64,000 nt of DNA from Mobula birostris. Its lineage: Eukaryota. The notes under the pieces are model-generated. The model was not told the origin of the DNA. It saw nothing but the letters and a program-made list of their open reading frames with translations, and made no database searches. The position numbers and the translations under genes were made by a program. Location: assembly GCF_030028105.1 (NCBI RefSeq), contig NC_092370.1, positions 176,586,647 through 176,650,646 of the forward strand, written 5' to 3'. This document shows positions 6,846 to 54,272 of this stretch, piece after piece (positions within the stretch are counted from its first letter, which is position 1; each line of letters starts with the position of its first letter).

Positions 6846-7093
6846 TATGAGTGAATACATTAGTGGAATCAAAGTGAACCTTACAAAGTGAGTAAATCGA
6901 GCTGAACAATCACCTTTTCACCATTCTTCTCTGACTCAACTTTGTTCTTTTCCTTGGGTAATAGGAAGGGGTTCACTGCCCTATATCTTGTCCTTCTATA
7001 GATCCAAGTTTTGCTGCTGCTCACATCTCCAACCTAACAGTATGTTTTTCAGTGACACGCCTAGTGATAATATAGTTTTTATTGTATCACTTC

Positions 7094-7294
7094 TCTTGTG
7101 TATGTGGCCTGTTTACACAACTATGTTATTAATAAAAACGTGGGAGACAGGAGCTAAGTTTCATGGTTCCTTACTGGTAGAGTCTGAACTTTTACTCACA
7201 CACATACAGATCCCTACGCACCTAATAGCGCATGCAATGATGTGTTACTACAACATAAAGTAGACCCTTATTATAATGTAGGCCATACAGTACA
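7094..7294 (-). repeat. 3' LTR (201 bp)
   Basis: Aligns without gaps to 10750-10950 with 22 mismatches by manual count. Minus strand begins TGTAC; the terminal CA is mutated to GA. Confidence 0.95.
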
Positions 7295-7307
7295 CTCCTC
7301 CCCTTTT
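7295..7307 (-). other. Polypurine tract
   Basis: Minus strand AAAAGGGGAGGAG immediately upstream of the 3' LTR. Confidence 0.9.
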
Positions 7308-7403
7308 ATTTTAATAGTGTATCAACTGTTTTTTTTTTACTGGGTCACTATGCTAAACAAATTTGTCTACCCCAACATACAAACACCTACCATTTGTTTA
7401 CTT

Positions 7404-7461
7404 AGTAACTTAATAATATCAAATCATAACAAAGTAACTTAATAATATCAAATTATAACAA
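7404..7461. repeat. 29-bp tandem duplication in the 3' untranslated part of the LTR element
   Basis: agtaacttaataatatcaaat(c/t)ataacaa twice. Confidence 0.9.
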
Positions 7462-7493
7462 GCCTTTTTTTTTACTTTGGGTCTAAGACCCAT

Positions 7494-7555
7494 TTATAAC
7501 TCAAGTCTCTAGGGGGAGGGGTGGTTCTTCTCTGCCTCTCTGGATAACGACTGTC
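7494..7555 (-). pseudogene. Residual C-terminal tail of Gypsy pol/integrase
   Basis: Reads DSRYPERQRR..PP..RLEL* with a frameshift, matching the RYPxRxRxPPxRL ending typical of Mag-type polyproteins. Confidence 0.6.
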
Positions 7556-7658
7556 AATAAACTTGTTTGTTTTAATACAAATTTCCATATAAAAATCATG
7601 AAAAGTTGACCTCTGAGAATAGGGAGTTAAGATGTGCGCCTCCAACTTGCTAAGAGTT

Positions 7659-8595
7659 CTAGGCAGCAGATCGTCTCTGTATAATGAAGACTGCTCTGTG
7701 CAGCTGTCCTAGATATATACGCATCTTTGTGCTATCACTTGTCTTCCTTACCCATATCTCATTTGTTCCCCAACTGAGCTAATTACATAGCCAATCTTCG
7801 TATTCTCCTTAGATTCCAAATAGATAGCCTGACCTTTATGATACCATCTCTTATTGTAATATAACTTTCCATCTTCTATTCGTCCTTCATATCTTTGTGC
7901 TAGTGATTCAGCAGGAGTGCTGAGAAGATGCTCAGTAGAAGATAGAGATGCTGGTCTTTTTGGAGATTTAAGCCGATTGAGAGTTTGCAGATCTTCCGTT
8001 ATCTGTTCATCTGTTAACAAGTAATGTAACTGCACAGGTGCAGGTTTTCATCTTCTGTCTGTAATTGGAACAGGGTCATTAGGTCTCCTCCTTAGTTTCC
8101 TAGTCGTTATTGGCTCTATCTCCATAGACTCTCCTGTGAGTTCCATTGTTAGCCTCTCATTCTCAATCATCTTTTTTCTTTTCTTCTAACTCAATCTTTT
8201 TAACTTCAAATCTCTTCACTGCAGCTTTCTTCTCTTTAATATAATTCCTTTCCACTTGTTCTGTCTCCAGTTGCAGAAAAAGCTCTGCATTTCGTATTGT
8301 TTCCTTGTATTTTTGATCTAGTTTCTTCACCCTTTTCTGATACTCCTGCAAAGTGTCTTCCTATAACTGCTGTAGCTGTCCTTTGAGAGATGTCAATTTC
8401 TCCTGGTACATCTGCCCTTTTACTTCCAGGTAGTCTTCATCATCCTGCTTATTGGCAATATCTGTCTCTCTTGCTTCCTCTGTATCTTTATCCGAGTCGT
8501 GGCCACGGATACTGCATTCGTCCTCATCGTCAACGCTGTTTAGCTCCTCCTTGTCGTTGTAATAGTCGACAATGGATGAGGAGAGCTGTGGACAT
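7659..8595 (-). pseudogene. SUDS3: Intronless, start-to-stop retrocopy of Sin3 histone deacetylase corepressor complex component SDS3
   Basis: [17 protein letters not shown]...[17 protein letters not shown]...[17 protein letters not shown]...[20 protein letters not shown]...[13 protein letters not shown]...LLTDEQI...KSPKRP...[25 protein letters not shown]...[21 protein letters not shown]....IIQRRSAA*. Disabled by frameshifts (~8575, ~8170, ~7768), stops (8361-8363, ~8050) and a 24-nt deletion. About 100 nt of putative 3' UTR with ATTAAA follows (7556-7658). Confidence 0.95.
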
Positions 8596-8633
8596 CTTCC
8601 CAACCGAGCTGCCCTCCTTTGTTGACGCATCTT

Positions 8634-9199
8634 TATTCGTCCATCGTCATCATCGATGAAGACCTCGACACCATTGATGGTGCCCAGACTAGCTCATGAT
8701 TTGGATTTAAGTGAGGGAGAGTTGCGCAGCGTCAGCCTCACTCTCTCTTCCCAATTCCCATCTGGATCCAATGGCAAGACAGAGTCGAGATAGCTGGAGA
8801 TGGGACTAGGCACAGTGGATAACCAGGATGTCTTCTGTGTCTTGTTGTGCTCTACCCGTTCCATGACGCTTGCAGAGTCTGTCTTCTTGACCATTGGACC
8901 TTCCATTAGTTTCATCCACTCAATCCGCCGGAGTCTGTCTTCACATGCTGGGATAGACATCTCCCTATCTCACCGAGGGTTTGAGACCCATCGGCTTCCC
9001 TCACCTGGTTTAGCCGTTTAGCCGGCTTGTTGAAGTCGTTGCCCGGGGTGTGGCCACTGTCACATGCAAACAGCTACGAGGAGCCACAGGTGAGAGCTGA
9101 GTGCCAGGTGGGGACCAAAGGTGGACTAACCGCCTTGAAAAGGACGTGACATGTTCCCCCACCAGAGGTGCTACCACTCCCTGACACCCCATACACCCC
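8634..9199 (-). mobile_element. 566-bp non-autonomous retroposon (SINE/RTE-like) inserted secondarily into the LTR element
   Basis: Flanked by an 11-bp imperfect TSD tgacgcatctt (8623-8633) / taacacatctt (9200-9210). Minus-strand 3' end is gatgatgacgatg-like. Confidence 0.7.
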
Positions 9200-9530
9200 T
9201 AACACATCTTGTGCCTTGATGGTGTGCCAATCCAACTGGATTTTCCTGAGCCATTCCCGTCCTAGCAACAGTGGTCCTCCATTTTTCAGTACATAGCGGT
9301 TCAGCTGCTGTGTTTTGTCTTCGTAGGTCACTGTCACTTTAATTTTGGCTTTGGGACGCACTTTCTGTCCTGTGTAAGTCTTTAGCAGTAGTTTAGTTCG
9401 TTTCAGAGGTATGTGAGAAAACAGTCGTTAGTAGTCATGTACAGAGATCACTGTTAAAGCTGGGCCTGTGTCCAACTCCATTTTCAGTCTCACGCTTGCC
9501 ACTTGTGGAGTGATCCTTATCACTCTTCAA
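9200..9530 (-). pseudogene. Gypsy aspartic protease (disrupted)
   Basis: LKMELDTGPALTV...LKTYTGQK...GGPLLLGREWLRKIQLDW. Confidence 0.9.
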
Positions 9531-10367
9531 TCATCTGTCTCTTTCACGCTGTGAAGCAGCAGACAAGACAATTCACTTTCGTCTGAGTTGTTTTCATCAG
9601 AACTGATTTCTTCCATTTTGTGTACATTGTTGTGTTTTCCTTTCTGGGGTTTCTTGTTTCTCTGTATTTTGTCTGTTTTCTGTTGTTTACTAGCTTTGCA
9701 TACTCTGCCAGTGTGGCCCTGTTTGCCACAGTTTCTGCATTCTTTGTCTTTAAACCAACAGTCCTCAGGGTCATGTGACATGTTCCCATAATTGTAACAT
9801 TTATTTCCTTCATTTCTGTTTGGTGACATTTTATTCGTAGCATACTCGAGAGATTTTTTTGTACCTCTGAAGCAGCTCGTGCTTCTGTTTCCGTTGATAT
9901 TGCGATGTTCGGCACCTTCTGTAATTAAGGTCTTTTTCACTCAGGAGCTTCTTCTGTGTGGTTTCACATTCCGCACACTAACCTGTCCCTCAATGTATCC
10001 GATAGACAAGGTTCAAATTGACAACGTTCCAATAACTTGCGCAATTCACAATATTCAGAAATGCTTTCATTTTTGCTCTAATTCTGTTTGTGAAATTTAA
10101 ATCTTTCAGCAATGACCAGTGGTTTGGGGTTTAATGCTGTTGGAGAGTGTCTACTATTTGCTTGAATGTTTTGTCAGCTGGCTTTTCAGGGGTTAACAAG
10201 CTCTGTAGCAGCCCATATGTTTTTGCTGTCATAATACTGAGTAAGACACTGGCTTTCTTTTCATCATTAACACCATTAGCCTCATTATATAACTCCACTC
10301 TCTCAATGTAAGTTGCCCAGTCTTCAATGCCACTATCAAATGCTGTAATGGTTCCAATCATTGCCAC
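9530..10367 (-). pseudogene. Gypsy gag (disrupted) with two zinc knuckles
   Basis: IGTITAFDSGIEDWATYIERVELY..ANGV..EKKASVLLS...YGLLQSLLTPEKP...LVIAERFKFH...LRDRLVCG...CYNYGNMSHDPEDC....ECRNCGKQGHTGRVC. Confidence 0.92.
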
Positions 10368-10519
10368 CTTTGTTATGTTAATTTAGCCCCTTTTCCCCCT
10401 TTTTTTCTTTTTGACTCATGTGTCCTTTTTGCTAGCCCCACGAGCGCACTCTGTCTAGATGTGTGTGTCGCTCCTTTTTATCTCCCTTCTGGGGCAGGCA
10501 GACCCTCAGCCCCTGGGGG

Positions 10520-10693
10520 TCAGCGCTGGCTGTGGTCTCGGCTGGACATGCTGCGGCTCCGACTGTGTTTCTTGGCCTCCCGATGTTCCTGACTCCGGCT
10601 GTGCTCCTGCTTCCTTTCGGACTCGTGGCCTTGCTCTGTCTCCTTCTCCCACTCCTTGGCTTGTTCCTTGCGCTCTTCCTCCAAGTGTCGCTT
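10520..10693 (-). pseudogene. Captured 3' coding end of an RS/RE-rich splicing-factor mRNA, ACIN1 (Acinus)-like
   Basis: A frame absent from the ORF track reads KRHLEEERKEQAKEWEKETEQGHESERKQEHSRSQEHREAKKHSRSRSMSSRDHSQR*. Reverting CpG-decay codons gives ...KEREKETER...REHSR...KKHSRSRS..SRDRSRR*, resembling the ACIN1 C-terminus as I recall it. Confidence 0.6.
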
Positions 10694-10735
10694 TCAACTA
10701 AAACCCGGCGTTCCGATAAGATGTAGGTTCATTAA

Positions 10736-10746
10736 CCTCGTCACCA
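10736..10746 (-). other. Primer-binding site
   Basis: TGGTGACGAGG, 3 nt downstream of the 5' LTR end (TGG is complementary to tRNA CCA). Confidence 0.75.
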
Positions 10747-10749
10747 ATT

Positions 10750-10950
10750 TGTTGTGTATGTGGCCTGTTTACACAACTATGTTATTAATAAAAACACAAG
10801 AGACGGCAGCTAAGTTTCATGGTTCTTTACTGGTAGAGTCCAAACTTTTACTCACACACATACAGATCCCTACACGCCCAATACTACATGCAACAGCATG
10901 TTACTACAACATAAAGTAGTCCCTTATTATAATGTAGGCCATACAGTACA
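10750..10950 (-). repeat. 5' LTR (201 bp)
   Basis: TGTAC...CAACA termini on the minus strand; pairs with 7094-7294. Confidence 0.95.
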
Positions 10951-11241
10951 ACTTCCGTGCGACACTCCGTGTTTTTGAGAGATGTATTTAACCATGATTA
11001 AAATAGCTATCTCGTGTCTCAGATGATAGGTCTGGTGAAATGGACTGACACAGGGTGACTTCAGAAGTAATTTGTGTGCACAAGTGTGATCTTATTATTT
11101 GTGAAGTCTTATTTGACTCTGATGGCAAATTTTGATAATTATGTTGTTCAAGTATGTACTGTAGTTTTAAATACTTTACTGTCCATCATTTTGATGTCTT
11201 TTACTTCAGGGTTTCCATACTCATAGGGCCTATATCCAAAT

Positions 11242-34929: not shown

Positions 34930-36692
34930 CGATGATTTTAAGTTCCCTGGCCCCCACCGCTTTATTTTCACGATGGATGTCCAGTCCCTATATACTTCCA
35001 TCTCCCATCAAAAAGGTTTCAAAGCTCTCTGCGTCTTTTTGGATTCCAGACCTAACCAGTTCCCCTATACCACCACTCTGCTCCATCTAGCGGAATTAGT
35101 CCTTACTCTTAATAATTTCTCCTTTGGTTCCTCCCACTTCCTCCAAACTAAAGGTGTAGCCATGGGCACCCGTATGGGTCACAGCTATGCCTGCCTTTTT
35201 GTTGGCTTTGTGGAACAATCTATCTTCCAAACCTATTCTGGTATCTATACCCCACTTTTCCTTCGCTACATCGACAACTGCATTGGCGCTACTTCCTGCA
35301 TGCATGCTGAGCTCGTTAACTTAATTATCCTTGCTTCCAACTTTCACCCTGCCCTCAAGTTTACCTGGTCCATTTCCGACACCTCCCTCCCCTTTCTAGA
35401 TCTTTCTGTCTCTGTCTCTGGAGACAGCTTATCTACTGATGTCTACTATAAGCCTACTGACTCTCACAGCCATCTGGACTATTCCTCTTCTCACCCTGTC
35501 TCTTGCAAAAATGCCATCCCCTTCTCACAATTCCTCTGTCTCCGCCGCATCTGCTCTCAGGATGTGGCTTTTCATTCCAGGTCGAGGGAGATGCCCTCCT
35601 TTTTTAAAGAAAGGGGTTTCCCTTCCCCCACCATCAACTCTGCTCTCAAACACATCTCCCCCATTTCACGCACATCTGCTCTCACTCCATCCTCCCGCCA
35701 CCCCACTAGGAATAGGGTTCCCCTTGTCCTCACCTACCAGCCCACCAGCCTCCAGGTCCAACATATAATTCTCCGTAACTTCTGCCACCTCCAACCGGAT
35801 TCCACCATTAAGCACTTCTTTCCATAGGGATCGCTCCCTACATGACTCCCTTGTCCGTTCGTCCCCCCCATCCCTCCCCACCGATCTCCCTCCTGGCACT
35901 TATCCTTGTAAGCGGAACAAGTGCTACACATGCCCTTACACTCCCTCCCTCACTACCATTCAGGGCCCCAGACAGTCCTTCCAGGTGAGGCGACACTTCA
36001 CCTGTGAGTCAGCTGGGGTGATATACTGCATTCAGTGCTCCTGATGAGGCCTTCTATATATTGGTGAGACCCGACGCAGACTGGGAGATCGTTTCGCTGG
36101 ATACCTACGCTCTGTCCGCCAGAGAAAGCAGGATCTCCCAGTGGCCACACATTTTAATTCCACGTCCCATTCCCATTCTGATATGTCTATCCACGGCCTC
36201 CTCTGCTGTAAAGATGAAGCCACACTCAGGTTGGAGGAACAACACCTTATATTCCGTCTGGGTAGCCTCCAACCTGATGGCATGAACATTGACTTCTCAA
36301 ACTTCCGCTAATGCCCCACCTCCCCCTCGTACCCCATCTGTTATCTATTTATTTATATACACACTTTCTTTTTCTCCCTCTGTCCCTCTCACTATACCCC
36401 TTACCCATCCTCTGGGGTTCACACCCTCACACCCCCTTTCTCCCTGGGCCTCCTGTACCATGATCCTCTCATATCCCTTTTGCCAATCAAATCCAGCTCT
36501 TGGCTCCATCCCTCCCCCTCCTGTCTTCTCCTATCATTTTGGATCTCCCTCTCCCCCTCCCACTTTCAAATCTCTTACTAGCTCTTCTTTCAGTTAGTCC
36601 TGACGAAGGGTCTCGGCCCGAAACATCGACTGTACCTCTTCCTAGAGATGCTGCCTGGCCTGCTGCGTTCACCAGCAACTTTTATGTGTGTT
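34930..36692 (+). mobile_element. Penelope-like element (Neptune-type), 5'-truncated: RT + Cys linker + GIY-YIG + pLTR
   Basis: MDVQSLYTSI, GVAMGTRMG, LRYIDN, YYKPTDSH; CKRNKCYTC linker; VIYCIQC..LLYIGET..RL..R; LQPDGMN; stop at ~36312. Confidence 0.95.
36595..36633 (+). ncRNA. Minimal type I hammerhead ribozyme in Penelope pLTR
   Basis: agtc-CTGACGA-agggtctcggccc-GAAA-catc-gact: core boxes, stem II, and stem I agtc/gact. The cleavage triplet here is ATC. Confidence 0.8.
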
Positions 36693-54029: not shown

Positions 54030-54272
54030 TGCAAACAACAGGAATTCTGCAGATGCTGGAAATTCAAGCAACACACATCAAAGTTGCTGGTGAACGCAGC
54101 AGGCCAGGCAGCATCTCTAGGAAGAGGTACAGTCGACGTTTCAGGCCGAGACCCTCCGTCAGAACTAACGTTAGTTCTGACGAAGGGTCTCGGCCTGAAA
54201 TGTCGACTGTACCTCTTCCTAGAGATGCTGCCTGGCCTGTTGTGTTCACCAGCAACTTTGATGTGTGTTGCT
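54030..54272. mobile_element. Inverted dimer of Penelope pLTR fragments (206-bp palindrome, two hammerheads)
   Basis: 54067-54272 is self-complementary about 54169/54170 with no spacer; 14-bp TSD ctcaa(c/t)ccattata at 54016-54029 and 54271-54284. Confidence 0.92.

Follow-up and report, generated by a model that had tools for sequence, protein, structure and literature searches.

The window, by which we mean the whole 64,000-nucleotide stretch analysed here (G000:C1:176586647-176650646 in the 4.0-Gb genome of Mobula birostris), carries on its minus strand a decayed LTR element in which the coding sequence of the host gene SUDS3 occupies the place of reverse transcriptase (RT). With a probability of roughly 55%, we read it as a dead, helper-dependent Ty3/gypsy copy that obtained SUDS3 through template switching, the cargo being a passenger whose open frame was favoured for RNA stability or translation. 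The family to which it belongs is a non-autonomous Ty3/gypsy lineage whose RT-RNase H-integrase segment was swapped for SUDS3 cDNA, likely by template switching at a 7-nt microhomology, and comparison of frames across copies confirms Gag-protease-SDS3 as a single predicted frame in active elements.

Structure of the element, its parent and its subfamilies

The element lies between two LTRs and a 5-bp target-site duplication, and its features are listed below from its 5' to its 3' end.

10951..10955, unstranded: target-site duplication, outer copy, 5 bp, identical to 7089-7093
10750..10950, minus strand: 5' LTR (TG...CA), 89% identical to the 3' LTR over 199 nt
10733..10746, minus strand: primer-binding site, the same motif following the 5' LTR in SDS3-type and parent copies
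9580..10367, minus strand: gag with two Cys/His knuckle motifs (9799, 9739), broken in the window, from sister-copy comparison
9211..9579, minus strand: linker and aspartic protease, DTG at 9472-9464, from Pfam gag-asp_proteas on sister copies
8634..9199, minus strand: later 566-bp high-copy retroposon insertion, absent from sister copies
8608..8614, minus strand: 5' capture junction, 7-nt microhomology GGGCAGC, from parent copies and host exon 1
7659..8595, minus strand: intronless SUDS3 coding sequence, all 12 exons, broken, from host gene comparison
7551..7658, minus strand: host SUDS3 3' UTR, about 110 nt, class B end, from host comparison
7308..7550, minus strand: the parent's last integrase codons and 3' untranslated part, window 7573-7096 being 74-85% identical to parent 3' ends
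7295..7307, minus strand: polypurine tract, from the sequence
7094..7294, minus strand: 3' LTR, from the LTR pair alignment
7089..7093, unstranded: target-site duplication, inner copy, 5 bp, from the sequence

The primer-binding site is one that we take to be complementary to tRNA-Ser. Exact 5-bp duplications flank 10 of the 15 copies with both ends located. The gag start codon, ATG in 98/99 copies, is GTG in the window, where gag-protease also holds four frameshifts and three stops and SDS3 three frameshifts and two stops. The protease assignment comes from natural sister copies, whose Pfam matches (E 1.6e-4 and 5.9e-4) fall under the curated cut-off. A family-wide 24-nt in-frame deletion in the SUDS3 coding sequence maps to about 8193 in the window. 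Over 7000-11000, Rfam returned one chance-level match and ARAGORN none.

The original prediction described an 11-bp imperfect duplication with two transitions around a 566-bp piece, and this duplication is present at 8623-8633 / 9200-9210. The piece is a high-copy repeat, with at least 5,684 first-look candidates, and recurs in 14 other copies, where its 5' end is constant, the flanking duplications vary and a short microsatellite tail is often present. The constant 5' end and the variable duplications identify it as a later retroposon insertion; this short retroposon-like repeat (8634-9199; L062-L075) had no match in Rfam. The insert does not mark the join between element and host, the junction being intact at 8608-8614, about 10 nt beyond the duplication. 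The family of hundreds of copies and its further captures had been overlooked.

Junction patterns gave 274 SDS3-type and 173 parent-type matches, with 0 for the SDS3-type pattern in a reversed control. The SDS3-type pattern finds 27/47 independently found copies, from which we estimate about 480 copies; the parent-type pattern finds 2/5, too few for scaling the 173. Among the best 29 other protease matches, 24 run on into SUDS3 and five into RT. The copy set, after removal of 19 duplicates, comprises 161 SDS3-type copies (window included) and 34 of parent type.

The parent is an element of 5.1-5.4 kb that encodes gag, protease, RT, RNase H and integrase and leaves no space for env; in five parents the end of integrase sits just ahead of the polypurine tract and 3' LTR, with no env found. 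The order protease-RT-RNaseH-integrase was established with Pfam (RVT_1 and RT_RNaseH) and, for integrase, from translations, as the C-terminal integrase piece tried gave no Pfam match. The best PDB match of the parent RT is Ty3 RT (E 6e-11), and among named proteins the nearest relative found is a 'K02A2.6-like' protein of a fish (P0124).

Host SUDS3 consists of 12 exons at G000:C36:8191k-8252k, all of which are held by the copies in intron-free form, and its spliced product equals the Mobula birostris protein except for one 8-residue alternative segment. One of its introns, at G000:C36:8208994-8205908, is of the AT-AC (minor) type and was correctly removed in the captured cDNA. The cDNA replaces about 2.7 kb of pol between the protease and the last integrase codons. 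The heptamer GGGCAGC occurs both in the parent linker that follows the protease and 12 nt upstream of the host SUDS3 start codon, which fits the template-switch model of Tan et al. as set out in parts of PMC5131818. At the 3' join of class B (defined below), an apparent 7-nt microhomology emerges from the copies and the parent's translation. The copies thus combine features of an LTR-mediated retrocopy, namely an intronless mRNA in an ORF, joins with microsimilarity, LTRs, primer site, polypurine tract and target duplication, with the 274 dispersed matches expected of secondary retrotransposition.

Subfamilies A-E were defined by the end point of the host sequence.

Class A: 342 nt of SUDS3 3' UTR; 39/161 copies
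Class B: about 113 nt of SUDS3 3' UTR; 58/161 copies, window included
Class C: SDS3 cut near codon 232, followed by antisense RNF213; 27 copies, 52 pattern matches
Class D: deletion variant of C; 4 copies
Class E: SDS3 cut at about codon 125, then YBX1 5' UTR and coding region, then the tail of C; 6 copies at first

The remaining 27/161 copies are broken off by unrelated insertions or locus ends. The class C tail was identified as antisense RNF213 at E 1e-52. For class E, 32 pattern matches were found, one of which is the host YBX1 gene, leaving 31. Host YBX1, on C32, has a microhomology of 11 nt with SDS3 and one of 10 nt with the RNF213 tail. One class C copy (L192:837-1157) has an acidic, serine-rich open stretch ahead of the element's 3' end, with no Pfam match. 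With the tails of classes C, D and E, dozens of loci would putatively transcribe antisense RNF213 from the LTR, which could supply silencing RNA against an innate-immunity gene.

Reading frame across gag, protease and SDS3

We checked phase on natural insert-free copies and not by excising the 566-bp insert. In the 159 copies with both anchors, the distance from protease to SDS3 codon 13 is exactly in-frame in 138 and at -3 in two, so that protease and SDS3 are in phase in 140/159; the remaining 19 differ by assorted small shifts or by insertions of their own, among them the window at +575 (a 577 insert and a -2 deletion). About half of the copies were chosen by a junction-spanning pattern, which biases the count toward an intact join; copies chosen by protease DNA alone include none out of phase, with one listed, L028, at -3. 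The window alone has the -2 change near 8580, so the frameshift around 8575 that could have been ancestral to all copies is not. As natural copies are in phase, the 1-in-3 chance attached to the frame match in the original prediction no longer weighs on the frame itself. The in-phase copies and the private frameshift together support one Gag-protease-SDS3 frame in active elements, and the phase and codon-column data bear out the predicted ancestral arrangement, with SDS3 standing where the parent has RT.

Over longer distances this frame is scrambled: between the gag and SDS3 starts (1.2 kb), 31 of 98 copies are in net phase and 44 and 23 are shifted, as private indels accumulate. Each 120-nt window from gag to the SDS3 end is unshifted or in-frame in most copies, while straight read-through from the gag start to the SDS3 end meets fewer than 10 stops in only 6/73 spanning copies. 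Natural stop-free frames nevertheless occur, with Pfam identifying protease plus Sds3 in one of 428 aa and gag plus protease plus Sds3 in one of 512 aa. No annotated full Gag-protease-SDS3 protein of near length was found, P0048 alone containing the junction peptide. A protease cleavage site could lie on either side of the junction, depending on the yardstick: by HIV RT spacing, RT would start about 25 residues past the junction, and by Ty3 spacing, with boundaries as we take them to be, about 10 residues ahead of it.

A stop is the commonest codon in 0/304 SDS3 columns (deletion zone excluded) and in 1/402 gag-protease columns. The exception, protease codon 318, is stopped in 70/149 copies, in 10/31 parents and in 24/37 class A copies; it is a CpG site and the most mutated of 31 such sites (0.49). 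Its stop has no linkage to 26 neighbouring shared variants. Inheritance of the stop was considered and rejected for lack of excess rare-variant sharing (220/300 shuffles reach the observed value); one gag marker, among about 75 tested, is associated with it (p=0.006). We regard codon 318, with some doubt, as a mutational hot spot, partial inheritance being possible.

The YBX1 part behaves similarly. From 30 loci, the host YBX1 gene (L257/L274/L279) among them, the SDS3-to-YBX1 distance is in phase in 22/26; with the host gene left out, the linker has host length in 22/27 and a stop is the commonest codon in 0/218 columns. A -1 slip recurs in four YBX1 copies. The inherited SDS3 deletions, of 24, 57 and 9 nt, are all in frame, compared with 32/94 single-copy indels of at least 4 nt. 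Together with the SUDS3 and YBX1 captures, this makes 5/5 frame-keeping events, with a joint chance of 0.01-0.015, or 0.03-0.046 once the event that led to the finding is left out, in a test of just five events judged post hoc. By comparison, about 45% of repeats within the SDS3 coding sequence are in-frame, three divides the length of 2/4 recurrent changes in the non-coding RNF213 tail and of 3/5 in gag-protease, and two out-of-frame deletions recur in gag in three copies each.

Selection on the cargo and competing explanations

Rare variants have N/S ratios of 2.6 in gag, 2.3 in protease, and 2.7 and 3.7 in two parts of SDS3, with stops in every region, which indicates that copies decay neutrally after insertion. 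Shared non-CpG variants, some of which may be mutational hot spots, are 27:24 in gag (p=0.004) and 1:9 in protease (p=0.0002), compared with 9:3 in SDS3 (neutral expectation about 2.9:1) and 16:2 in YBX1. The cargo as a whole (25:5) differs from gag/protease (28:33; p=0.0007), and SDS3 alone does so at p=0.11. Many gag and protease variants are common to SDS3-type and parent copies, and part of the synonymous bias may thus have been imported by recombination; family-specific variants number 11 N:10 S (p=0.09). A duplication of ~118 nt in the Cys/His knuckle region (window-equivalent 9683-9801), seen in L007, L008, L026, L077, L078, L093 and L100, is present in SDS3-type copies and a parent, marking recombination between them. 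In L025, letters of parent type reach a few bases beyond the switch point of the other copies, which hints that the junction recombined a second time.

The ~24-nt deletion is present in 136 of the 144 copies that cover it, the other eight having fragmented gaps at the site, and removes KENLIAEL, which is exact in 108/114 host proteins. The residues S43, P187, D94 and R100, invariant in 114/114 host proteins, are altered in the family or in subfamilies, S43R and P187T being family changes. Of ten columns with synonymous differences between SDS3 and host, those at codons 61 and 92 have the element's letter in contigs from organisms C and E, so at least 2/10 arose in the host lineage. These observations, with neutral-like inherited changes and a C-terminal part replaced in classes C, D and E, do not support the idea of a useful gag-onc-like cargo that accompanied the frame prediction. 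That the cargo keeps its frame without keeping its sequence is better explained by selection on the RNA, or by luck, than by SDS3 function. Constraint on the cargo protein is judged from few sites, where changes look neutral-like, and a new or dominant-negative function is conceivable.

In the reading we prefer, a single RNA would be transcribed from the LTR and translated as Gag-protease-SDS3; RT and integrase supplied in trans by the parent would copy this RNA and insert it. Template switching by reverse transcriptase would join the SUDS3 message to element RNA; co-packaged parent or host RNAs could supply recombinants, with recombination with parent RNA presumably repeated. Selection would then favour an open frame, for example against nonsense-mediated decay. 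Nonsense-mediated decay targets long 3' UTRs. Some translation may also be needed for RNA stability, as parts of PMC3945221 describe for Ty1. Two observations sit poorly with selection for frame: the class C frame ends within about 25 codons of the cut, leaving a long untranslated tail, yet there are 52 matches; and, again in parts of PMC3945221, defective yeast Ty1 elements move as well as intact ones. It is possible, though clearly less probable, that the in-frame joins are luck and the cargo a spacer between cis signals, spread resulting from shortness and the right ends, with no selection downstream of the protease or even on gag. Such luck would leave neutral-like N:S, as both cargos show, and a tree of 153 copies is star-like (length 6.03 on tips, 0.21 inside), allowing little time for frame-breaking changes. 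The junctions fall at long microhomologies, which set the frame mechanically, chance 6-mer switch points are in frame in 4/14 and 16/32 cases, and an antisense RNF213 cargo is tolerated. What speaks against luck is that all five inherited events within translated cargo are in frame (joint 0.01-0.05) and that the family-specific shared protease variants are 4/4 synonymous.

A role for the cargo as protein seems unlikely to us. Released, altered SDS3 would disturb Sin3-HDAC silencing of the element or bind its RNA, and the YBX1 cold-shock domain would serve as an RNA chaperone. SDS3 forms a coiled-coil dimer, interacts with Sin3 and HDACs and can bind nucleic acids through its C-terminal domain (from portions of PMC8800102); both in-frame cargos are nucleic-acid binders. 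SDS3 was captured whole and in frame and rose above the parent in number (274 vs 173 matches), residues 1-120 are present in every subfamily, and the 8-residue loss could yield a dominant-negative form. Against this, the shared changes (9:3 in SDS3, 16:2 in YBX1) and the altered invariant residues give no sign of constraint, classes C, D and E lack the C-terminus with its capped Tudor domain, and some synonymous differences belong to the host lineage. Similarly improbable is an env-less, oncoretrovirus-like element with a Sin3-HDAC subunit in the polymerase's place, trimmed by eight residues into an interfering form that blunts its own silencing, outnumbers its parent and samples YBX1 in the same slot; an interfering role for SDS3 is conceivable but without support here. 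Very improbable, and refuted for the family, is a processed pseudogene made by LINEs and inserted into an LTR element, or else a domesticated retrogene, even though mobulid genomes are LINE-dominated (from parts of 10.64898/2026.10.27.761883) and RefSeq labels several copies 'SDS3-like'. The cDNA takes the place of pol and is no mere interruption, the host 3' UTR breaks off early where it meets the parent's 3' end inside the element, and one junction is common to hundreds of loci. As for domestication, purifying selection after insertion is not seen: the SDS3 frame is open in 1/92 full-length copies, where decay predicts 2.2, and N:S is 17:6.

Age, range and relation to known elements

Template switching of this kind is already known. 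Cases of LTR-mediated retroposition in the parts of Tan et al. 2016 (PMC5131818) likewise have mRNA replacing internal ORFs, both LTRs, secondary rounds and multi-gene chimeras, with a median microsimilarity at joins of 6 bp compared with 7-11 in the ray family. Those cases are mostly partial cDNAs at one or a few sites, whereas the ray family has a whole coding sequence fused in frame, hundreds of copies and serial captures. Maize Bs1, as outlined in parts of PMC7264820 and PMC5131818, also transduces pieces of several host genes in an LTR element; it is a plant element described as having turned into a chimeric gene, in contrast to the neutrally decaying ray copies. With the Mag lineage of Ty3/gypsy (parts of PMC3286476), the parent shares a length of about 5.4 kb, ~200-bp LTRs, mostly 5-bp duplications and gag-pol without env, and its presumed tRNA-Ser primer site would fit the Ser/Leu type, which makes Mag a candidate lineage by such features. 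The mechanism, then, is known as LTR-mediated retroposition and is Bs1-like; for the scale and for repeated in-frame captures in a vertebrate we found no published precedent.

Acutely transforming retroviruses are defective and helper-dependent, with host cDNA in frame behind gag (gag-onc). The ray family resembles them in its in-frame gag-host fusion and its need of a helper, and differs in a parent without env, a retained protease and no sign of selection on the cargo protein. It is a large natural record of gag-host fusions arising and being re-edited in a vertebrate germline without a virus, and its events can be counted to learn whether filtering of captured frames acts on RNA or on protein.

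The literature searched on SUDS3 retrocopies and in-frame LTR captures yielded no description of the family, which may be catalogued in Repbase/Dfam. The mobulid genome preprint returned no match to SDS3 or Sin3; its supplements, and those of the retrocopy preprint cited next, could hold copy counts. SUDS3 is among the top retrocopied genes of cartilaginous fishes in parts of bioRxiv 10.64898/2026.06.26.734816, which tie retrocopies to non-LTR elements and selective filtering; the ray count, by contrast, comes from one LTR-amplified capture. Lists of most retrocopied genes and RefSeq 'SDS3-like' paralogues in rays can therefore owe their entries to a single LTR family and not to expression bias or selection, and the same LTR origin is predicted for other listed genes (MIPOL1, SDF2L1, SLU7, ZNF276).

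The median non-CpG divergence of the copies from the host is 0.042, and LTR pairs differ by a median of 0.099 (range 0.045-0.177, 30 copies). The ~24-nt deletion is also found in the M. hypostoma proteins P0003, P0048, P0051 and P0122. For Hemitrygon and Pristis, the host protein alone is among the matches listed, which does not imply absence of the family. Eight runs were available as contigs of unspecified library type, which makes them evidence neither for nor against expression. The protease-SDS3 junction is bridged by contigs from organisms B, C, D and F, and the YBX1 join by contigs from C and F; organism E gave a host-type contig alone. In X2 and X9, contigs were seen that fuse a start of element type to SDS3 of host type, with the 24 nt present; these were set aside as possible assembly chimeras.

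Run X15 on L050:1691-1872 has an SDS3 contig with a 1-nt insertion at a depth of 1747, vs 4-61 in the others listed, and also has the YBX1 join; with the library type unspecified, the high-depth contig could be highly expressed or amplified. Elsewhere in the window, 54067-54272 forms a spacer-free, head-to-head palindrome of a 103-nt repeat, 96% complementary, and this repeat recurs at 36593 and 43520.
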